Below are positions 9,041 to 32,000 of a DNA stretch of 32,000 nucleotides, piece after piece. Where the stretch lies: positions 1 through 32,000 of the forward strand of contig NZ_OMOH01000005.1 of the NCBI RefSeq assembly GCF_900289195.1, in the 5' to 3' direction. The notes under the pieces are model-generated. The model did no database searches, was not told where the DNA came from, and worked only from the letters and a program-made list of their open reading frames with translations. The translations under genes were made by a program, and so were the position numbers. Within the stretch, counting starts at the first letter, position 1. Each line of letters opens with the position of its first letter. The DNA comes from Propionibacterium ruminifibrarum (GTDB lineage Bacteria; Actinomycetota; Actinomycetes; Propionibacteriales; Propionibacteriaceae).

Positions 9041-10200
9041 CAGTTCGGTCCCTGCCGGCCGGGATAGCCCGGGTAAGGCGGTTGGGGCGCACCGGGCTCA
9101 CCGGGCCGAGATGCGGCCGGTGGCGCGGTGTGCATGGGCGGGCCGGGAACCGGACCGGGTGGGACGTCGGCCCGGCCGGGCGGGGGAGCGGCCGGTGGCG
9201 CGGTGTGGACGGGCGGGCCGGGCGGAACGGCGCCTGCGGCCGGCGGCTGGGGCCGCCCGGTACCGCTGCGGGGCCCGGCCGCCGGCGCCCAGCCCATGGT
9301 CTGGGCCTGTTTCGCCGTGACGAGGCGTCCGGCACGGGCCAGATCCGAACGGGTGAGCCGCGGGCCGGCGAGGATCATCGCCAGGCAGACCCAGCGTGCC
9401 ACCGAGTTGCCCACGGGGAGCGGCTGGGCCTGCCCGGCGAGCAGGGTCACCAGGATGACGAGCGCCACGATGCCGAGCGCCACGAGGAAGGCGGCGCGCA
9501 GGAAACGCCGCGAACGCGACTGGGTCATCGACAGGATCCACGCCAGGAGAAGCATGGCGAGGGCGAAGGGTTGGATGATGAAGCCAATGGCGAGGCAACC
9601 CAGCATTCCTAGCCCGGTGGTGCGCAGCAGGTTCCCGACGCTGTAGGGCAGCACGCCGGTGTCGGTGAGCAGGACCAGGGGCCCGGTCAACTCGTCGGGG
9701 GTCTCCTGGGGCATCGGCGCCGGAGCCCCAGACCACGAGCCGCCCAGCGGATAGTTGTTCACGGTCTGTGGGGCCGGGCCGGACGCCGGGAGCTGCGCCT
9801 GGGGGGCTCTGTCGGCGCCCTGCTGCGGGGCGGCCGCGACGACGAGTGAGGAGGCGTCCGGTGGTGCGAACTGCGTGGACGACGCGGGGCCGCTGGAGAG
9901 CTCGAACGGTGTCCTCGGGTCGTGCGCGCGCGGACCGGAGGTGGCCAGCAGCGACGTGCTCTCGAAGGGCTTGTGCGGGTCCCGCGGGGCCTGCACGGCC
10001 GGGGCCAGGGATTCGAGTGTGGGTCCCGGATCGTCCGGGGAACGGATCGAGTCCGGGCGGGCGAGGGCGCCGCTCACCTCGACGCCCGGTTCCCGACCCG
10101 GCGCCGCCAGCGGCTCGGCCTTCGGCTGCGCGAACGCGGCCGGCGCCTCACGAGGAGCACCGTCCAGCGTGAGGGTGTCGAAGATGCGCGGCCCTGCCAT
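9037..10200 (-). CDS. Proline-rich integral membrane protein, function unknown
   Basis: Disordered N-terminal half, then three or four TM helices (LGMLGCLAIGFIIQPFALAMLLLAWIL, FLRAAFLVALGIVALVILVTLLAG, WVCLAMILAGP) and a Pro-rich repeated tail. Start taken at ATG 10200 (MAGPRIFDTL); the ORF extends to 10326. Confidence 0.6.
   Translation of the reverse strand: MAGPRIFDTLTLDGAPREAPAAFAQPKAEPLAAPGREPGVEVSGALARPDSIRSPDDPGPTLESLAPAVQAPRDPHKPFESTSLLATSGPRAHDPRTPFELSSGPASSTQFAPPDASSLVVAAAPQQGADRAPQAQLPASGPAPQTVNNYPLGGSWSGAPAPMPQETPDELTGPLVLLTDTGVLPYSVGNLLRTTGLGMLGCLAIGFIIQPFALAMLLLAWILSMTQSRSRRFLRAAFLVALGIVALVILVTLLAGQAQPLPVGNSVARWVCLAMILAGPRLTRSDLARAGRLVTAKQAQTMGWAPAAGPRSGTGRPQPPAAGAVPPGPPVHTAPPAAPPPGRADVPPGPVPGPPMHTAPPAASRPGEPGAPQPPYPGYPGRQGPNW
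9114..9222. repeat. Intragenic tandem duplication, 75-bp period
   Basis: CGGCCGGTGGCGCGGTGTGCATGGGCGGGCCGGG (9114-9147) recurs at 9189-9222 with two mismatches. It encodes the PPGP(P/V)..HTAPPAA repeats of the membrane protein's tail. Confidence 0.7.
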
Positions 10201-15976: not shown

Positions 15977-16666
15977 ATGAGCGGCGAGCTGATTGATACC
16001 TCCCAAATGTATCTGCGGACGGTCTACGAGCTGGAGGAGGCCGACATCGAGCCAAAACGTGCTCGCATCGTCGACAGGCTCCACCAGGCGGGGCCCACGG
16101 TCTCCCAGACCGTTGCCCGCATGGAGCGCGACGGTCTCATGCGGCTGACGGAGGAACGCACCATCGAGTTGACCCGGTCTGGTTTCGATGAGGCGCGCAA
16201 GGTCATGCGACACCACCGGCTGGCCGAGTGCTTCCTCATCGACGTTCTCGGGCTCGACTACGACAAGGCCCATGACGAGGCCTGCCGTTGGGAGCACGTG
16301 ATGAGCGAGGAGGTCACCGAACGCATGGCTGAGCGGCTCGGTCACCCCACCGCCAGCCCGTACGGCGCCCCGATCCCCACGGCGACCGCCCGCAAGGTAC
16401 GTCGCCTGGCCGACTACGGTCAGGATCTGCGTTCAGCCGTCGCGGCCGGACTGGACAGGGTCGTTTTCGTCATGGTCGACGAGCGACCGCAGACCGATTC
16501 CGACTTCATGGCCCAGCTCGCCGCGTCGCAGATCCGTCCCGGTGACGTCGTGGTCCTCGGCGGGCAGGGCGATGACTTCGCTCTGGCCAGCGAGGACGGT
16601 CAGCGCACAGTGAGCATTCCACGCGAGTACGCGGGGTCGATACGGGTCAAGTCAGCCCACCACTGA
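15977..16666 (+). CDS. DtxR/IdeR/MntR-family metal-dependent transcriptional repressor with C-terminal SH3-like domain
   Basis: TSQMYLRTVYELEE...PTVSQTVARMERDGL winged-HTH, dimerisation/metal-site region (HHRLAECFL...H..ACRWEH), ~70-aa C-terminal domain. Confidence 0.9.
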   Translation: MSGELIDTSQMYLRTVYELEEADIEPKRARIVDRLHQAGPTVSQTVARMERDGLMRLTEERTIELTRSGFDEARKVMRHHRLAECFLIDVLGLDYDKAHDEACRWEHVMSEEVTERMAERLGHPTASPYGAPIPTATARKVRRLADYGQDLRSAVAAGLDRVVFVMVDERPQTDSDFMAQLAASQIRPGDVVVLGGQGDDFALASEDGQRTVSIPREYAGSIRVKSAHH

Positions 16667-16797: not shown

Positions 16798-17151
16798 ATG
16801 GCGACCATCGCACTGGATGAGGCCAACTTCGAGAGCACGGTGACCTCCGACGGCATCGTGCTCGTGGACTTCTGGGCCGAGTGGTGCGGACCCTGCAAGC
16901 GGTTCGGGCCGATTTACGAGAACGCCAGCGGCAAGAACGAGGACATCGTCTTCGGCAAGGTCGACACCGAGGCGGCGCAGGACTTGGCGGCGCAGCTGCA
17001 GATCCAGGCCATCCCCACGCTGATGGCCTTCAAGGGCGGCAAGCTGCTGTTCCGCAACGCGGGTGCCCTCAACGCCGCCCAGCTCGACGGACTCATCTCG
17101 CAGATCCGTGAGTACGAGCCCTCCGAGAGCGACAGCGACGAGGCGGTCTGA
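16798..17151 (+). CDS. trxA: Thioredoxin
   Basis: 117 aa with the active site WAEWCGPCK and a thioredoxin-fold length. GAAAGGA lies upstream of the ATG. Confidence 0.9.
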   Translation: MATIALDEANFESTVTSDGIVLVDFWAEWCGPCKRFGPIYENASGKNEDIVFGKVDTEAAQDLAAQLQIQAIPTLMAFKGGKLLFRNAGALNAAQLDGLISQIREYEPSESDSDEAV

Positions 17152-17169
17152 GAGGACCCCCGGAACCGT

Positions 17170-17222
17170 GGCGCGTCCTGCGCCCGGCCAGCGGCCGGGG
17201 CAGGGCGCGCCCCTTCTTTTCC
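17170..17222 (+). terminator. Intrinsic terminator of thioredoxin gene
   Basis: Long GC hairpin GGCGCGTCCTGCGCCCGGCC (17170-17189) / GGCCGGGGCAGGGCGCGCC (17193-17211), loop AGC, followed by CCTTCTTTTCC. Confidence 0.7.
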
Positions 17223-17784: not shown

Positions 17785-19158
17785 ATGAGTGAGCAAGGAC
17801 TCCAGCAGGCCAGGCAGAAGATGATCGACGCAGGGGTCGGTCGTACCGCCGTTGACGTGTTCAGCCACCATTACGAGCAGGTGGCGTCCGGAGCCACGGG
17901 CCTCATCAGCGAGGACTCCATCCGCCCGGTCGATGACGTGCCGGGCATCGAGGACATCCGCGTCAGTGATGAGCAGGCCAGGCAGGCTCTCGACCAGACG
18001 GTCTTCATCAAGTTGAACGGCGGGCTCGGCACCTCGATGGGTCTGTCCCGGGCCAAGACCCTTCTCGAGGTGCGTGACGGCCGCAACTTCCTCGACATCA
18101 TCGTCGCCCAGGTACTGGCCGCGCGCCGGACCTACGGGGCGCGCCTGCCGCTGCTGCTCATGGACTCCTTCAACACCCACGACGACACGATCGCCGCCCT
18201 GGCGAAGTACCCCGATCTGCCCGTCGGCGACCTGCCGCTGGACTTCCTGCAGAGCAAGGAGCCCAAGCTCTGGGCCGGCGACCTCACCCCCGCCGAATGG
18301 CCGACCGATCCCGGGCTCGAGTGGTGCCCGCCCGGGCACGGCGACATCTACGCGTCGCTCTACGACAGCGGTCTGCTCGACATGCTGCTCGAAGCCGGCT
18401 ACCGGTATGCGGCGGTCGCCAACTCCGACAACCTCGGCGCCGTACCCGACGCGACGATCGCAGGCTGGTTCGCCGCCACGGGCGCCTCCTGGTGTTCCGA
18501 GGTGTGCGAGCGCACGCCCAATGACCGCAAGGGCGGTCACCTCGCCATCCGCAAGGAGGACGACAGGATCGTGCTGCGCGACACCGCGCAGACCTCCGAT
18601 GAGGACATGGCCTACTTCACCGACGAGACGGTGCACCGCTACTTCAACACCAACAACCTGTGGTGGAACCTCGAGGCCCTCAAATCCAAACTCGACGAGA
18701 CCGGTGGAGTCCTCGACCTGCCGCTCATCCGCAACGTCAAGACCGTCGACCCCAAGGACCCCTCGAGCCCCGAGGTCATCCAGATCGAGAGCGCCATGGG
18801 CGCGGCCGTCGAGCTGTTCGACGACGCCAGGGTGCTCCGGGTCGTCCGCGACCGGTTCGTGCCGGTCAAGAAGACCAACGAGCTGCTCCTGCTGCGCTCA
18901 GACGTGTACGAGATCGGTGACGACGGCGTCCTCAGGGCCCAGGTCGAACGCATCCCCGGGATCGACCTCGGCCCGGCCTACAAGTTCGTTCGCGAGTTCG
19001 ACAAACGCATCCCCCACTCGGTGGGCCTGCGGCAGGCGGGTTCGCTGACCGTCACCGGCGACTGGACCTTCGGCGCCGGGGTCCAGGTGGTTGGTGACGT
19101 CACCCTCGGCGACGAGGGCGGCGTGATAGCCGATGGTGAGGTGCTGCAGGGCAGGTGA
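17785..19158 (+). CDS. UTP--glucose-1-phosphate uridylyltransferase, eukaryote-type UDPGP family
   Basis: FIKLNGGLGTSMG nucleotide-binding loop, LLLMDSFNTHDDT, PPGHGDIY and NSDNLGA are hallmark UDPGP (PF01704-like) motifs. ~457 aa from ATG 17785; a GTG at 17779 is also possible. Confidence 0.85.
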   Translation: MSEQGLQQARQKMIDAGVGRTAVDVFSHHYEQVASGATGLISEDSIRPVDDVPGIEDIRVSDEQARQALDQTVFIKLNGGLGTSMGLSRAKTLLEVRDGRNFLDIIVAQVLAARRTYGARLPLLLMDSFNTHDDTIAALAKYPDLPVGDLPLDFLQSKEPKLWAGDLTPAEWPTDPGLEWCPPGHGDIYASLYDSGLLDMLLEAGYRYAAVANSDNLGAVPDATIAGWFAATGASWCSEVCERTPNDRKGGHLAIRKEDDRIVLRDTAQTSDEDMAYFTDETVHRYFNTNNLWWNLEALKSKLDETGGVLDLPLIRNVKTVDPKDPSSPEVIQIESAMGAAVELFDDARVLRVVRDRFVPVKKTNELLLLRSDVYEIGDDGVLRAQVERIPGIDLGPAYKFVREFDKRIPHSVGLRQAGSLTVTGDWTFGAGVQVVGDVTLGDEGGVIADGEVLQGR

Positions 19159-25249: not shown

Positions 25250-25322
25250 GGGGCTATAGCGCAGTTGGTAGCGCGTCTCGTTCGCAATGAGAAGGTCGGG
25301 GGTTCGAATCCCCCTAGCTCCA
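25250..25322 (+). tRNA. tRNA-Ala (anticodon CGC)
   Basis: Hand-folded 73-nt cloverleaf GGGGCTA/TA/GCGC-AGTTGGTA-GCGC/G/TCTCG-TTCGCAA-TGAGA/AGGTC/GGGGG-TTCGAAT-CCCCC/TAGCTCC/A. The G3:U70 alanine identity pair is present. Confidence 0.95.
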
Positions 25323-25329
25323 CTGAATA

Positions 25330-25950: not shown

Positions 25951-26385
25951 ATGCCCACGGTGCTGCACGCAACAGCGGTCGATCGCGGTGATGTCGAGAT
26001 GGTGCGCTCGCTGGCTGATCGGCTTGGCGACACCGCCCTGTCTGCTGTGTTGACGCAGCTGGTGAGTGCTGTTGAGCGTGGCGTTGACGTTGCGCTGCTT
26101 GATGCTGACAAGGAACTCACGCCCAACGAGGTGGCCGACATCTTGAAGGTCTCCCGTCCCTACGCGGTCAAGTTGATGGATCGTGGCATCCTCGCGTTCC
26201 GCATGGTGGGTAGTCACCGTCGTGTCGCGATGGCTGACCTGGTCGACTACATCACCCGTCACGAGCGTGCCAACGCCCACATCAGTTCCGTGCTTGCCAA
26301 CCGTGAAGCCGCGATCTCTGAAGCAATGGACGAGGCTGCCGTACTCACCGATGAGGATCTGGCAGAGCTGGCCTCACTGGACTGA
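25951..26385 (+). CDS. Excisionase-family (HTH_17/MerR-like) DNA-binding protein, antitoxin-like, orphan
   Basis: ELTPNEVADILKVSRPYAVKLMDRGILAFRMVGSHRRVAMADLVDYI is the typical excisionase-family HTH. GGAGGGG lies 7 nt before ATG 25951; the ORF opens at GTG 25936. Confidence 0.75.
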   Translation: MPTVLHATAVDRGDVEMVRSLADRLGDTALSAVLTQLVSAVERGVDVALLDADKELTPNEVADILKVSRPYAVKLMDRGILAFRMVGSHRRVAMADLVDYITRHERANAHISSVLANREAAISEAMDEAAVLTDEDLAELASLD

Positions 26386-27480
26386 CAGGTGCCGCCGGAT
26401 GAGGTCGGCGACTCGTTGTGCTGTCGGTAGTTGGCGCTCGCAGTCCGGGCACACGGGAAGATTGCACCCCTCATCTTGAGTGGGGACGAACCACAGTCCA
26501 CACACCCCTCGCTGCGGTAGCCCTTTGATGATGGCCTCAGTCAGGCCAGTGCGCGAGACGTAGTGCAGATGTGTCAACGGCTGAGGCTCTACGGCAGGAA
26601 GCCCGGTCTGCGGATCGGCTAGTTCCGAGGCTGCCATGATCTGGGCAAGTTTCGTGTGGCTGACGGTCAGCCACACGACCATGTTCCCGTCGAGGTCGTA
26701 GTGAGCGTCGGGAGGGCACGTCTCGCTGTGAATGAACGGAAGAATCTCCTGAAGTGCGGCGTCGATAGCCCTGTGGCTGGGCCCGAAGCACTTCAATTCG
26801 ACGGTGGCAAGGCTTGAGGATTGCTCGAGCTCGAGTCCACCGCTCGTCACTTGTGGTGGCTCGTGGTCCTCGAAGTTGATGGTCAGGCTGGCTGTCAGCG
26901 GTTGCCCCGGAGCGGCAGGGAGTTCGACAGGGGTCGGTCCTGAGCTTTTCAGCGCCTCTGCGATTCCGACAATGACACGGTTGATGACCTCGCCCCGCCA
27001 GAGCAGTTCCACAACCAGGCGTTCCTCGCGGTCGCGGATCTTGTAGTCGGCCCGAGTCGGTTTCTTGTTGTCAAGTGGGGCAGAGCCCGTGGCCTGGGAC
27101 ACGGTGGCCGACACGGCATCGGCGACGTGGGCGTGGAAGTGATCATGGCGGTCGGCGTAGATGAGCCAGGGATCACCGGCATCGTCGGTGATGATGGCTC
27201 CGCGCCAGCCCGCGCCGTCACGGTCCCGAACTTCGAAGACAGGCTGTCTTGCTGATTTGGACGCTTCCGAATGCCGATCCGGGGTGCGGTCGGGGAAGTA
27301 TGACCGCGCATCGTTCAGCAAGGGCTGATCGAGGTCATAGAGACGCACGGGGCTCGTCGGATCCTGGACAAAGAGCCGAATGCTGCTGCGCTGGCGCTCA
27401 TTGGCAAAACTCTCCTGAGGCAGGCTCTTGAGGACGCGATACGTGGGCCGAGGCTGCCTGTGCCCGTCCGAAAATTCCAT
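26374..27480 (-). CDS. Hypothetical 368-aa protein: unknown N-terminal/central regions with His cluster, plus C-terminal DUF3039-like Cys4 zinc-ribbon
   Basis: AGGGGTGG RBS before ATG 27480. DRHDHFHAH lies at 27127-27153. The C-terminus THLHYVSRTGLTEAIIKGLPQRGVCGLWFVPTQDEGCNLPVCPDCERQ resembles the small actinobacterial DUF3039 proteins (HYV...ALCGK.W.P......PVCP.C) as I remember them. Confidence 0.7.
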   Translation of the reverse strand: MEFSDGHRQPRPTYRVLKSLPQESFANERQRSSIRLFVQDPTSPVRLYDLDQPLLNDARSYFPDRTPDRHSEASKSARQPVFEVRDRDGAGWRGAIITDDAGDPWLIYADRHDHFHAHVADAVSATVSQATGSAPLDNKKPTRADYKIRDREERLVVELLWRGEVINRVIVGIAEALKSSGPTPVELPAAPGQPLTASLTINFEDHEPPQVTSGGLELEQSSSLATVELKCFGPSHRAIDAALQEILPFIHSETCPPDAHYDLDGNMVVWLTVSHTKLAQIMAASELADPQTGLPAVEPQPLTHLHYVSRTGLTEAIIKGLPQRGVCGLWFVPTQDEGCNLPVCPDCERQLPTAQRVADLIRRHLSVQ

Positions 27481-27585
27481 CGCCACCCCTGTGCTCACTG
27501 TCGTGCGCATCGAGTCTATCGGCCGACACCCCACACCAGCCCGGCTCAGGGAGCGCAAGGGGGCAGGGTTGCCACGTAGCTGCGT

Positions 27586-27915
27586 TCAGCCGAAGAAGAT
27601 GGGGTCGCCGCTGTCGTCGATGTAGTCGAGGAGCACTTGGACGGTGGGCGTTGGCGGGATGTCGTAGGCGTGGAATTTGAGGTTCTGGTCGCGCCAGTAC
27701 AGGCTCCACAAGCCGGTGGTCTGGGTGTATCGGAGTCTGGCGATGGGGAATCGAGTGTGGTCGCCTTGGCCGTCCCAGGGTGGGCGGACTTCGACAATCG
27801 TGACGTGGCGAGCTTCGACGTCGGCTTCGATCTTGACTTGCTCCCACAGCTGTTTGGGTACATGGGCATCGCACCAGCGACGGATGCGCACGAGGTCGAT
27901 GTCGGGAAGAGCCAT
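27586..27915 (-). CDS. DUF3024-like protein (109 aa)
   Basis: MALPDIDLVRIRRWCDAHVP...HVTIVEVRPPW...FPIARLRYTQTTGLWSLYWRDQNLKFHAYD closely follows the DUF3024 pattern remembered from Streptomyces homologues (..RAPW..PIARLRYT...W.LYWRDRNL.FH.Y). Confidence 0.75.
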   Translation of the reverse strand: MALPDIDLVRIRRWCDAHVPKQLWEQVKIEADVEARHVTIVEVRPPWDGQGDHTRFPIARLRYTQTTGLWSLYWRDQNLKFHAYDIPPTPTVQVLLDYIDDSGDPIFFG

Positions 27916-28069: not shown

Positions 28070-28300
28070 CTACGCCTGGTCGGTATCGAGTAGCTCAAGG
28101 GCGTCAGCGACGTTCGTGGCATCAAGCTTCAGCCCGACACGCACCGTCCGCTGCTGGAATCGCTTGGTCGCCATCGCCCCACGGGCCAAGCCCGCACGAG
28201 CTAGCTCGTTGACCGCCTCGCCAAGACTGATGTGACGTTCCCGCCTCAGCCGCTCGGCTGCCGCAGTGACCTCGGGGTCCAGCTGCACCATCGTCCTCAT
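28070..28300 (-). CDS. Ribbon-helix-helix (CopG/VapB-like) antitoxin-type DNA-binding protein, no cognate toxin gene
   Basis: MRTMVQLDPEVTAAAERLRRERHISLGEAVNELARAGL is an RHH beta-strand/helix/helix pattern. 76 aa from ATG 28300; ATG 28291 is the alternative. Confidence 0.65.
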   Translation of the reverse strand: MRTMVQLDPEVTAAAERLRRERHISLGEAVNELARAGLARGAMATKRFQQRTVRVGLKLDATNVADALELLDTDQA

Positions 28301-28392
28301 GTCAACCAGTATGAGCGGCACAGACACTGAACCGAATGTCGGTGCCCGGTCATATCATGATCTATCGACTTGAGCCCGGAAGGTGGTGCCCC

Positions 28393-31300
28393 ATGACAGA
28401 CACGATCCTGAGTCTGGGGGCACTGCACGCTGGCCAGCGCCTTCGCGGCCTGGTGCCGGGTCAGGTCGTCACCGTGGTCGCTGTCGACCCCATTGACGAC
28501 GGGCTGGTGGAGGTCTTCTACCGCGACGAGAGCGGCCAGAGCGGCGCCCACATGGTGACGGGCGCCGACGCGGCCGCCCTCACCGAGGTCTCGGCGGAGG
28601 ACTCGACACCGGCCTTCGACGCCGACCCCGACGAGTTCCGTCTGGCGGCCGAGGCCCAGCGCATCAAGTACGCCGCGCTCTACGATCCGATGGCCGCGGT
28701 CAACAGCTCCGACGTCGACCCGCTCCCGCACCAGATCAGGGCCGTCTACGAGGAACTGCTGCCGCGCGTCCCGCTCCGCTTCCTGCTGGCCGACGATCCC
28801 GGCGCGGGCAAGACCATCATGGCGGGCCTGTACATCAAGGAGTTGATCCTGCGCTCGGACTGCGAGCGGGCCATCGTCGTCGCCCCCGGCGGCCTGGTGG
28901 AGCAGTGGCGTGAGGAACTGGCCACGAAGTTCGACCTGCGGTTCGAGGTGTTCAACCACCACATGGTCGACGACGCCCAGGGCCGCAACGTCTTCGCCGA
29001 GCACGATCTGCTCATCGTGCGGATGGACCAGATCTCCCGCAGCCCGGAGCTGATGGAACAACTCTCCGATGTCGCCTGGGACGTAGCCGTGGTGGACGAG
29101 GCGCACCGGATGAGCGCCCACTACTCGTCATGGGCCGGCGAGGTCGACGAGACGAAACGCTTCAAACTGGGCCGGCTCCTGTCGGAGACCGCGAACAACT
29201 ACCTGCTCATGACCGCCACCCCGCACGCGGGCAAGGAGGAGGACTTCCAGCTGTTCATGTCCCTGCTCGACCGGGACCGGTTCGAGGGCAAGTTCCGTGA
29301 GGGCATTCACCGCACCGACACCCAGGGTCTGATGCGCCGGATGGTCAAGGAAGACCTGCTGACCTTCGACGGCAAGCCCCTGTTCCCGGAGCGCCGCGCC
29401 TACACCGTCGCCTTCGAGCTGAGCCCGGCCGAACGAGACCTCTACGAACAGGTCACCGACTACGTCCGCACCGAGATGGGCCGCGCCGAGCGGATCGCCC
29501 AGGCGGGCGACCGCAAACGCGGTAACAACGTCGGTTTCGCCCTCACCGTGCTGCAACGCCGCCTGGCGTCCAGCCCCGAGGCCATCCTGCGTTCACTGGA
29601 ACGCCGCCAGGCAAGGCTGGAGGCCCGGCTCCGCGAGACCAGACGCGCCGTCGACGATGTGCTCGACGCGTCCCTGCCCGCCCTGTCGGTCGAGGACTTC
29701 GATGACGTCGACGAGGAGACCACCTGGGAGGAGCGTGCAGAGTTCGAGGCCGGCATGAACGAGGTCGTCGACCGCGCGACCGCGGCCCAGACCATCGACG
29801 AGCTCCGCGCCGAGATCACCATCCTGGAGGACCTCATCCGGGTGGCCCGCCGCGTCCGGCTCCAGGACGTCGACAAGAAGTGGGCGCAGCTGCGCGCCAT
29901 CCTCGACGAACAACTGCTGTCCCATGACACAACGGGTGCGGCCCGCAAGATCATCATCTTCACCGAGCACCGCGACACCCTCGACTACCTGCACGGCAGG
30001 ATCACCGCCCAGCTCGGCCGCGCCGACGCCGTGATCACCATCCACGGCGGCACCAGCCGCGAGGACCGCAAGGCCGCCCAGGAGCAGTTCACCCACAGTC
30101 CCGAGACCGTGGTGCTGCTGGCCACCGACGCCGCAGGCGAGGGCCTCAACCTGCAACGCGCCCACCTCATGGTGAACTACGACCTGCCGTGGAACCCCAA
30201 CCGCATCGAACAACGCTTCGGACGCATCCACCGCATCGGCCAGCGCGAGGTCTGCCACCTGTGGAACCTGGTGGCCTCCGACACCCGCGAGGGCGACGTG
30301 TTCAACCGCCTGCTCAGCAAGATCGACCAGATGGGCAAGGCCTACGACGGCAACCTGTTCAACGTGCTGGGGGAGCGCGACGCCTTCCAGGAGCGCTCAC
30401 TGCGCGATCTGCTCATCGAGGCCATCCGCTACGGCGACCAGCCCGAGGTCAAGGCCAGGCTGGGCAAGATCATCGACGCCGGGGTCTCGGCCGGCCTGGG
30501 CGAGATGATACGCGAACGGGCCCTGCACCCCCAGATGTTCAGCGCCCTCGACCTGGACGCGGTACGGGCCCGCATGGAGCTGGCCAGGGAACGACGCCTG
30601 CAACCCGGCTACATCGCCGCCTTCTTCCTGTCCGCATTCGAGCGGCTCGGCGGCCGCATCCGACGGCGCGAGAGCGGCCGCTACCAGATCACCCGCGTCC
30701 CCGAGCGCCTCGTGGGCATCGCGCGGCGCGCCAACCGGTGGGCGCCGGTCGCGGACTCCTACGAACGCGTCACCTTCGAACTGGAGCGGGTCAGGGTCGA
30801 CGGGCGCCCCACCGCCTCCCTCATCGCCCCCGGCCATCCGCTGCTGGGCGCCGTGATCGAGGCCACCATCGCCGACCTCGGCGAGGCCCTGTCCGCCGGC
30901 ACCGTCCTGGTGGACCGCCGCAGCACCCAGGCCGAGACGCCCATGCTCATGTACACCGTCGAGCAGCGCATCCACAACGCCACATCGAAGGCCGACACCG
31001 TCTCACATCACTTCGACTACCCGCTCCTGGCCCGCGACGGCACGGTCACCGTCTCACCGGCCCCGCCCTACCTCGACTACGAGTCCCCGCGCGCGGGCGA
31101 ACGTGAGGCCATCGCAGCGGTGATTCGCGGCGAGTGGGTGCGTCAGAGCCACGACAAGGCGGTGCGGGCACACGCCTACCGCGAGGGGCTCTTGCCCAGG
31201 ATGGAAGAGGTCAGGGCCCGGCTGGAGGCCGAGGCGGCCCGCACCCGGGTGCAGGTCAAGGACCGGCTGCTGGCCGAGGTCAACCACTGGGACGCCGAGT

Positions 31301-31905
31301 ACAACCGCCTCGACGCCCTGGAGCGCTCCGGGGTCATCGGCCGGCTGCGGGCCGAGACCGCGCTGGCGAGGGCCCGCCAGCTCGACGACCGGCTCGACCG
31401 GCGCCTTCACGAACTCGACCAGGTGACGAATCTCGTCGCCGTGCCCTCGGTGATCCGCGGCACGGCACTCATCGTCCCCTCCCGCATGCTCGCACCCAGC
31501 CCCGGCGTGTTCGCCCACGAGACCGAGCAGGTGGAACGCCGCGCCGTCGAGGCGGTGCTCGCCGCGGAACGCGCCCTGGGGCGTACGCCGGTGGAGATGC
31601 CCCGCAACAATCCCGGCTACGACATCCGCTCCATCGACCAGGCCGGACGCACCCACTACATCGAGGTGAAGGGCCGCATCCACGGCGCCGAGACCTTCAC
31701 GATCACCACCAACGAGGTCACCTTCGCCCAGACCCAGGGCGACCGCCACCGGCTGGCGCTGGTCGAGGTCTCACCCGACGGCCCCGGGCATGACCGGCTC
31801 CGCTACGTGACGCAGGCCTTCTCACACATCGAACCGTCCGCCACCACCCGCTCCTACAACGAGGAGTGGCGCGGCTACTGGACCAGGGGCGGCCCGCCCC
31901 GATGA
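28393..31905 (+). CDS. SNF2-family helicase fused to C-terminal DUF3883 / PD-(D/E)xK nuclease-like domain
   Basis: 1170 aa. GGAAGGTGG RBS before ATG 28393. Motif I DPGAGKT (GAGKT = 28801-28815), motif II DEAH (29095-29106), motif III MTATPHAG, motifs V/VI LATDAAGEGLNLQ...NPNRIEQRFGRIHRIGQ. C-terminus: ERALGRTPVEMPRNNPGYDIRS...HYIEVKG...FTITTNEV (D 31621-23; E-V-K 31663-71). Confidence 0.9.
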   Translation: MTDTILSLGALHAGQRLRGLVPGQVVTVVAVDPIDDGLVEVFYRDESGQSGAHMVTGADAAALTEVSAEDSTPAFDADPDEFRLAAEAQRIKYAALYDPMAAVNSSDVDPLPHQIRAVYEELLPRVPLRFLLADDPGAGKTIMAGLYIKELILRSDCERAIVVAPGGLVEQWREELATKFDLRFEVFNHHMVDDAQGRNVFAEHDLLIVRMDQISRSPELMEQLSDVAWDVAVVDEAHRMSAHYSSWAGEVDETKRFKLGRLLSETANNYLLMTATPHAGKEEDFQLFMSLLDRDRFEGKFREGIHRTDTQGLMRRMVKEDLLTFDGKPLFPERRAYTVAFELSPAERDLYEQVTDYVRTEMGRAERIAQAGDRKRGNNVGFALTVLQRRLASSPEAILRSLERRQARLEARLRETRRAVDDVLDASLPALSVEDFDDVDEETTWEERAEFEAGMNEVVDRATAAQTIDELRAEITILEDLIRVARRVRLQDVDKKWAQLRAILDEQLLSHDTTGAARKIIIFTEHRDTLDYLHGRITAQLGRADAVITIHGGTSREDRKAAQEQFTHSPETVVLLATDAAGEGLNLQRAHLMVNYDLPWNPNRIEQRFGRIHRIGQREVCHLWNLVASDTREGDVFNRLLSKIDQMGKAYDGNLFNVLGERDAFQERSLRDLLIEAIRYGDQPEVKARLGKIIDAGVSAGLGEMIRERALHPQMFSALDLDAVRARMELARERRLQPGYIAAFFLSAFERLGGRIRRRESGRYQITRVPERLVGIARRANRWAPVADSYERVTFELERVRVDGRPTASLIAPGHPLLGAVIEATIADLGEALSAGTVLVDRRSTQAETPMLMYTVEQRIHNATSKADTVSHHFDYPLLARDGTVTVSPAPPYLDYESPRAGEREAIAAVIRGEWVRQSHDKAVRAHAYREGLLPRMEEVRARLEAEAARTRVQVKDRLLAEVNHWDAEYNRLDALERSGVIGRLRAETALARARQLDDRLDRRLHELDQVTNLVAVPSVIRGTALIVPSRMLAPSPGVFAHETEQVERRAVEAVLAAERALGRTPVEMPRNNPGYDIRSIDQAGRTHYIEVKGRIHGAETFTITTNEVTFAQTQGDRHRLALVEVSPDGPGHDRLRYVTQAFSHIEPSATTRSYNEEWRGYWTRGGPPR

Positions 31906-31948
31906 TCCATCCCCGCCGCCCAATCTCACCGTCGACGAAAGCAGTCCC

Positions 31949-32000
31949 GTGACCAAGAAGAAACTCATCGAGACCTCCCTGCCGCTGGAGGCCATCAACG
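31949..32000 (+). CDS. DUF1156-type (COG1743-like) adenine DNA methyltransferase, N-terminal 17 codons only
   Basis: GTG 31949, 44 nt after the helicase stop. VTKKKLIETSLPLEAIN matches the conserved DUF1156 N-terminus (..KLIE..LPLE.IN...) as I remember it. Truncated by the window end. Confidence 0.6.
   Translation, partial: MTKKKLIETSLPLEAIN

Follow-up and report, generated by a model that had tools for sequence, protein, structure and literature searches.

Hma systems, named for their helicase, methylase and ATPase, were defined from 1,638 loci in 26 phyla (Payne 2021, PMC8565338). The same operon had been noted and predicted in a 2020 survey of EVE domains (PMC7641849), and first notice of the neighborhood has been traced to 2013 (PMC12839542). 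Rakesh & Krishnan (2026), who gave the family the new name Type-1 BREX-related system, described each domain. The helicase has Tudor, Swi2/Snf2, inactive restriction endonuclease (REase) and C-terminal active REase domains; the DUF1156 N6-methyltransferase contains an insert for target recognition; and the DUF499 protein is an ORC/Cdc6-like ATPase whose C-terminal RRM domain is hypervariable (PMC12839542). The ATPase is fused to HEPN in 1370 of 2446 taxa, and the core three proteins parallel BrxHII, BrxXI and BrxC of Type-3 BREX (PMC12839542). Here we analyze 32,000 nucleotides of Propionibacterium ruminifibrarum (contig NZ_OMOH01000005.1, positions 1 to 32,000; hereafter the window), whose right end holds hmaA and the first 17 codons of hmaB from what is almost certainly a complete Hma operon.

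Functional data exist for Hma of Halomonas meridiana, where HmaA alone protects E. coli from phage T4 (Liu 2024, PMC11232893). The motif VI substitution R610A abolishes defense, T136A enhances it, and NOV_C residues D1084, E1104, K1106 and E1121 are all required; supercoiled pUC19 is nicked in vitro by the C-terminal domain on its own when Mn2+ is present (PMC11232893). Insertions between hma genes occur in about 66% of loci (PMC11232893). In a separate count, made for a 'guilt-by-embedding' search for new defense genes, 62.7% of 1,485 Hma systems carried embedded genes (Payne 2024, bioRxiv 10.1101/2024.01.29.577857). A preliminary description of the P. ruminifibrarum locus, made from the window's letters, took it for an uncharacterized helicase/methylase module. 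This history overturns that view: the system was named in 2021 (PMC8565338), T4 defense by HmaA was reported in 2024 (PMC11232893) and the domains were described in 2026 (PMC12839542).

The Hma core genes

To follow the operon past the window, we used a public contig of 51.7 kb that carries the exact HmaA protein (L001), and examined a locus of ~23.5 kb from it. L001 and the window showed 0 mismatches across their 13,608-nt overlap, and a window position equals the L001 position plus 18392. Everything past the first 17 codons of hmaB was read from L001 and lies outside the 32-kb window. Proteins were compared with Pfam, with the PADLOC-DB 2.0 protein models, and with NCBIfam at its curated cutoffs.

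The first gene, hmaA (28393..31905, + strand), encodes a 1170-aa Swi2/Snf2 helicase-nuclease, annotated here as the effector of the system. Starting from the ATG further upstream, at 28336, would lengthen the protein to 1189 aa, but the 1170-aa start is backed by homologues and by an NCBI protein of P. ruminifibrarum that is 100% identical to HmaA. The second gene, hmaB, starts with GTG at 31949, 43 nt past the hmaA stop; its frame opens VTKKKLIETSLPLEAIN and runs off the window (31949..32000, + strand, 17 codons). The preliminary description had placed this start 44 nt downstream, which is correct if the distance is taken from the final base of the stop codon to the first base of the start codon. 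The full hmaB gene (L001 13557-16325, + strand) encodes a 922-aa DUF1156 N6-adenine methyltransferase. The third core gene, hmaC (L001 19079-22480, + strand), lies 2.75 kb downstream of hmaB on the same strand and encodes a protein of 1133 aa with N-terminal HEPN_Swt1 and DUF499 domains. Both the DUF1156 methylase and the DUF499 ATPase had been predicted to lie downstream, and both were found in the continuation.

Each core protein was matched by its own PADLOC model. The HmaA model gave E=0 and 1308 bits, with residues 7-1156 aligned to profile positions 3-1159 of 1176. The HmaB model gave E=0 and 1106 bits, and the HmaC model 4.7e-271 and 900 bits, each over nearly the whole profile. Because all three models match over nearly their whole profiles, we identify the locus as Hma, i.e. 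the Type-1 BREX-related or DUF499-centered system. Current defense-finder models thus already classify the locus, a result that the preliminary description itself had named as one that would count against it. With its HEPN-fused DUF499 ATPase, the locus is the majority form of the Type-1 BREX-related system, already described.

Models of other systems also hit the motor region of HmaA, namely PADLOC DrmD (9e-111), BrxHI (3e-98) and BrxHII (1e-89), and NCBIfam DISARM_DrmD scored 366 bits. Such matches would be expected if the locus were a divergent DISARM or canonical BREX with a helicase resembling DrmD and BrxHI/BrxHII. Yet the DrmD score falls below the curated cutoff of 610 bits and covers residues 74-661 only; no gene for PglZ, BrxA/B/L, DrmA, DrmB (DUF1998) or DrmC (PLD) occurs in the 23.5-kb locus; and the HmaA, HmaB and HmaC models fit far better. 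We consider a DISARM or canonical BREX assignment very improbable. Nonetheless, the earlier statement that the visible parts do not match a BREX layout went too far, given the BrxHI and BrxHII matches and the published parallel between the core trio and Type-3 BREX (PMC12839542).

We next describe HmaA by domain. The 1170-aa frame and every motif that had been read from the letters were recovered at the same coordinates, and the interpretation as an SNF2 translocase joined to a DUF3883-type PD-(D/E)xK nuclease was borne out by Pfam: SNF2-rel_dom (3e-15, residues 131-352), Helicase_C (3e-23, residues 508-616) and NOV_C (PF13020, ex-DUF3883; 7e-20, residues 1047-1131). At the N-terminus, an AlphaFold2 model places a small Tudor/SH3-like beta-barrel at residues ~10-70 (28420..28602, + strand), with five strands (16-21, 24-35, 38-45, 50-56 and 64-67) at a pLDDT of 80-89. 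This domain is named Tudor in PMC12839542; here it is seen as a modeled barrel only. The SNF2 motor follows (28720..30345, + strand), with two RecA-like lobes and a helical insertion at residues ~345-490. Its motif I (GAGKT, 28801-28815), motif II (DEAH, 29095-29106) and motif VI (QRFGRIHRIGQ, 30211-30243) are invariant among the 50 homologues, of 72-80% identity, on which residue conservation in HmaA was judged.

Downstream of the motor, residues ~740-1030 (30610..31482, + strand) form a RapA-like C-terminal alpha/beta region and a long helical hairpin. A separate model of residues 740-1170 had a mean pLDDT of 81.6, and Foldseek matched it to the C-terminal region of RapA (8t0l_F, 5.7e-6 over 309 columns). 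Helices 921-978 and 984-1011 make up the modeled hairpin, of about 90 residues. This stretch had been described as a long, coiled, Arg/Glu-rich region; in the model it is more than a coil, with the RapA-like alpha/beta region first and the hairpin after it. The NOV_C domain (31531..31785, + strand) is identified as a PD-(D/E)xK nuclease from Pfam, motifs and Foldseek. Its signature residues, D1077 (31621-31623) and E1091-V-K1093 (31663-31671), are likewise invariant in the homologues. The last ~120 residues matched the Holliday-junction resolvase Hjc (2wcz_B, E 1e-3, target TM 0.61) and also PD-(D/E)xK nuclease chains of SPARDA complexes. The full-length model was of moderate quality (pLDDT 65), and inter-domain geometry was not read from it.

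RapA is the nearest solved structure to the HmaA motor (phmmer 1e-34, Foldseek 2.6e-19) as well as to the region after it. Because of these matches and those to Hjc and SPARDA, HmaA as modeled is a translocase of the RapA type to which an Hjc-like nuclease has been added. The RapA likeness also raises the question of whether HmaA is a housekeeping transcription or repair factor, unrelated to defense. We find that scarcely credible. NCBIfam RapA scored 174 bits against a cutoff of 576, HmaA bears the additional nuclease domain, and its operon is shared with methyltransferase, ATPase, toxin or nuclease genes. Moreover, the operon lies in a lower-GC island adjoining a tRNA gene, and its spread over actinobacterial genera is patchy and extends to 66 plasmids that carry HmaA relatives.

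In HmaB, the Pfam DUF1156 match (2.7e-29) is accompanied by the motifs FAGGG (residue 119) and DPPY (residue 521). The methylase had been expected to carry a Zn ribbon, but a search of the HmaB sequence for a CxxC pair found none, so the Zn ribbon is dropped. In HmaC, a predicted HEPN-Swt1 RNase joined to an ORC/Cdc6-like AAA+ ATPase, Pfam recognized HEPN_Swt1 (1.8e-34) and DUF499 (1.5e-32), and the motifs are intact: HEPN R94-x4-H99, Walker A GGGKT and Walker B ILIDE. Across about 47 actinobacterial loci, conservation was lowest between motifs I and IV of HmaB (residues 241-520) and, in HmaC, over residues 961-1080. Specificity or sensor domains would be expected to vary in this way.

The closest other locus, that of P. 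australiense NML98A072 (L023), is 97% identical in HmaA, 98% in HmaC and 85% in HmaB. The divergence in HmaB is concentrated in L001 14365-15099 (residues ~270-515), where blastn gave no alignment, a pattern suggestive of a swapped target-recognition domain.

All operon genes lie on one strand, in the order hmaA, hmaB, four embedded genes, hmaC. The first embedded gene (L001 16329-17159, + strand) encodes a 276-aa Abi_2-like HEPN protein with an RNRVAH motif (PADLOC PD-T4-5, 2.5e-18). The second (L001 17169-18284, + strand) encodes a 371-aa PD-(D/E)xK nuclease with DUF1016_N and YhcG_C domains (PADLOC candidate PDC-S02, 3e-107). A small ribbon-helix-helix (RHH) gene (L001 about 18431-18678, + strand) and a gene for a 104-aa MazF/PemK toxin (L001 18675-18989, + strand; PemK 2.5e-15) complete the set. 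Payne 2024 counted up to three genes between hma genes, compared with the four at L001 16329-18989. A promoter and terminator scan of the operon gave nothing above shuffle expectation.

A proposed mode of action

Taken as a whole, an Hma operon in P. ruminifibrarum with the mechanism proposed below is, in our judgment, a highly probable account of the locus. Its mechanistic part, that the operon works in a restriction-modification-like manner, we regard as having about an even chance of being right. HmaB would methylate host adenines within a short motif that its variable central domain recognizes. HmaC would help to recognize invading DNA through winged helix-turn-helix (wHTH) domains and its variable C-terminal domain. 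HmaA would then translocate on the invading DNA with ATP, and nick or cut it with the C-terminal nuclease. The HEPN domain of HmaC (Swt1 RNase), together with the embedded Abi_2/HEPN protein, YhcG nuclease and RHH-MazF pair, could provide back-up or independent effectors. The sequence shows what each part is, that the catalytic motifs are intact and how the operon is laid out; the methylation-based discrimination of self from non-self, and what HmaC and the embedded genes contribute, we infer.

Several observations weigh against this account. In the Halomonas work, hmaA by itself was enough for full T4 protection and caused no toxicity in the absence of hmaB. Over-expression of HmaB in the cells on which T4 was raised gave the phage no escape, restriction being as strong as before (PMC11232893). 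Either hmaB or hmaC is missing beside about 15-20% of hmaA genes, and the phenotype data come from Halomonas HmaA only (PMC11232893). PDB sequence searches returned no solved structure for HmaB or HmaC. In addition, the four embedded genes might lead rule-based tools such as PADLOC to report the system as split or incomplete.

The protection by HmaA alone, its lack of toxicity, the failure of HmaB over-expression to allow T4 escape and the hmaA genes that lack a partner are also what one would predict if HmaA were a self-sufficient sensor-effector, a helicase-nickase that triggers a dormancy-type abortive response, with HmaB and HmaC being accessory or regulatory. The collapse of the phenotype at a multiplicity of infection of 10 points the same way (PMC11232893). 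On the other side, the three genes are linked in about 80-85% of loci across 26 phyla (PMC8565338, PMC11232893). HmaB of this locus also keeps its SAM-binding and DPPY motifs, and its central domain is variable, as is usual for target recognition. T4 DNA carries glucosyl-hydroxymethylcytosine. Because its cytosines are modified, T4 is a poor test of protection by adenine methylation. We see a self-sufficient HmaA as possible, though we lean against it, and retain the restriction-modification-like scheme as the working proposal.

Embedded genes and genomic setting

The interval between hmaB and hmaC varies among the related loci compared. In most Microbacterium loci it is empty, and in about 25 loci its only gene is that of the DUF1016 nuclease. 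Abi_2 and DUF1016 occur together in an Actinomycetaceae locus (L026), Abi_2 alone in L029, and DUF1016 with RHH-MazF in P. australiense. All of these, Abi_2, DUF1016 and RHH-MazF, are present together in L001.

In L001, direct repeats mark the edges of two of these cassettes. A 64-nt repeat (16365-16428 and 18295-18358, 83% identical) precedes the Abi_2 and RHH-MazF cassettes, and a 45-nt repeat (17145-17189 and 19055-19099, 89% identical) follows them. The 45-nt repeat consists of the conserved hmaC leader, TTCTAGGAGACAACG, and then ATGGCGATGAACAACCGAGAT, and takes in the first 7 codons of hmaC. As a consequence, the DUF1016 gene of L001 opens with the ribosome-binding site of hmaC and those 7 codons; in L001 and L026 it starts with MAMNNRD, like HmaC. 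Where DUF1016 lies directly 3' of hmaB, it begins MPGSRD instead, and this switch of start looks like recombination at a shared CCGAGAT. The arrangement suggests that cassettes have been shuffled via recombination between Hma variants.

RNA structure at these junctions was considered and set aside. For the 64-nt element, a structured hairpin or a terminator was rejected on folding z-scores of -2.0 to +0.1 versus shuffles and the lack of a T-run. The spacer between DUF1016 and hmaC, as a structured element, was rejected on a consensus of -5 kcal/mol with essentially no covariation among 17 loci.

The RHH-MazF pair is further bounded by inverted repeats, 14 nt and perfect (L001 18362-18375 and 19003-19016), extending to ~18 nt with one indel and TA on each side (L001 18357-18375 and 19003-19020). 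They read TAGGG(G)CCAGCAAACCG, the repeat sequence being TAGGGCCAGYAAACCG. L026 has a matching empty, uninterrupted site at ~9940-9950. The pair may be a small, non-autonomous mobile cassette. Insertion and deletion are equally possible, however, because another locus (L058) has a degenerate left repeat. No further copies of the inverted repeat were found in the window (allowing up to 3 mismatches) or in 60 loci (exact match only). A scan of metagenomes for the MazF gave three RHH-MazF pairs of 64-67% identity, in unrelated contexts and without such repeats.

One reading of these junctions is that genes embedded between hmaB and hmaC do not insert at random but are swapped in and out at fixed junction sequences. 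We raise this tentatively and think it rather unlikely. If true, it would provide a concrete route for embedding, namely unequal or microhomology recombination between Hma variants together with a toxin-antitoxin non-autonomous element.

The operon probably sits in an island integrated at tRNA-Ala(CGC) (25250..25323, + strand, ARAGORN), the probable left border. GC content drops from about 0.70 to 0.61 over 25-28 kb, housekeeping genes lie upstream, and the operon begins about 3 kb past the tRNA gene. Within the 23.5 kb examined, neither an integrase nor a direct repeat of the tRNA 3' end was seen. HmaA relatives occur on the plasmids mentioned above, and HmaC relatives of 58-88% identity in many actinobacterial genera; the plasmid occurrence and the range of genera fit horizontal spread.

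The interval between the tRNA gene and hmaA holds an HTH_17 gene, a DUF3039 fusion, a DUF3024 gene and a small RHH-like gene. The DUF3024 gene (27586..27915, - strand; Pfam DUF3024 6.7e-30) is a neighbor and not part of Hma; it matched PADLOC PDC-S43 (1.1e-18), which is a candidate model only. Both PDC-S43 and PDC-S02 stem from Payne 2024 (bioRxiv 10.1101/2024.01.29.577857). Adjoining it, 26374-27558 (- strand) encodes a protein of 368/394 aa in which only the C-terminal DUF3039 is recognizable; just 184 aa of it match in P. australiense. An indel of ~650 bp relative to that species (L001 8523-9174, absent from L023) lies at or next to the 5' end of the DUF3039 gene.

Divergent from hmaA is a small gene (28070-28288, - strand), 72 aa as called and 85 aa from an upstream GTG. 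It had no family match in Pfam, PADLOC or NCBIfam and, among the loci fetched, occurred in two Propionibacterium loci only. The product could be a local regulator.

Directly after hmaC, P. australiense has a Gabija-like pair, an OLD-type ATPase-TOPRIM protein and a UvrD helicase (L023 13550-16833). The corresponding region in L001 (22481-23513) is about 1 kb without long open reading frames, with six-frame translations that look AT-rich. Because the two loci differ after hmaC, we regard the operon's far side as a variable spot.

Comparison with known systems

As a discovery, the locus carries little weight, being an ordinary new copy of an already known system. The Hma architecture has been catalogued across thousands of taxa, and PADLOC would label the locus Hma. 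Its practical value is modest: it offers a complete actinobacterial example with intact motifs. Paired with P. australiense, with near-identical HmaA and HmaC and a diverged center of HmaB, it makes a ready-made comparison for specificity. The junction repeats around the cassettes are the only mildly new material here; they are unproven and lie outside the window, and they could help to explain how embedding arises.

Type-2 BREX-related systems (a PLD/HKD helicase with DUF1156, DUF499 and DUF3780 proteins) share the DUF1156 and DUF499 families with the locus. Membership was rejected: Pfam matches of the locus included no PLD/HKD domain and no DUF3780 gene, and scores against the NCBIfam 'antiphage' trio were 162 versus 1100 (phospholipD_antiphage), 104 versus 1000 and 171 versus 1200 bits. 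DUF3780 had been anticipated nearby and is absent; it belongs to the Type-2 subtype. Canonical BREX (types 1-6) was also rejected, as no PglZ, BrxA, BrxB or BrxL was found among the genes of the 23.5-kb locus.

Type-3 BREX (BrxHII, BrxXI, BrxC, PglZ) has a homologous helicase, reflected in the BrxHII match above, and an analogous methyltransferase and ATPase. In contrast to that system, the locus is without PglZ, BrxA and BrxB, its effector is a helicase-fused nuclease, and its ATPase is DUF499, not BrxC (PADLOC BrxC reached only 1e-4 on HmaC). E. coli RapA, a Swi2/Snf2 RNA-polymerase recycling factor, resembles HmaA in the motor and in roughly 300 residues after it. Unlike HmaA, it is a housekeeping protein without a nuclease domain and without a partner methylase or ATPase.

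The closest matches are the two published descriptions of the system itself. The Hma of PADLOC, Payne 2021 and Liu 2024 has the same SNF2-rel_dom/Helicase_C/NOV_C, DUF1156 and DUF499 proteins. Hma of Halomonas meridiana SCSIO 43005 shares GxGKT, the motif VI RxxR and D...ExK, as well as embedded defense genes. It differs in that the host here is an actinobacterium, HmaC here carries an N-terminal HEPN-Swt1 domain, and the embedded set here is Abi_2/HEPN, DUF1016/YhcG and RHH-MazF, versus Septu and an AAA_21 pair in Halomonas. The Type-1 BREX-related system of Rakesh & Krishnan (2026) likewise has the HEPN-fused DUF499 ATPase, the DUF1156 N6-methyltransferase with a target-recognition-domain (TRD) insert, and the Swi2/Snf2 helicase. 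In the published description that helicase bears a small barrel at its N-terminus and an active PD-(D/E)xK domain at its C-terminus; in our case the barrel is modeled and the activity predicted. We find no substantive difference between the Type-1 BREX-related system and Hma: they are one system under two names.

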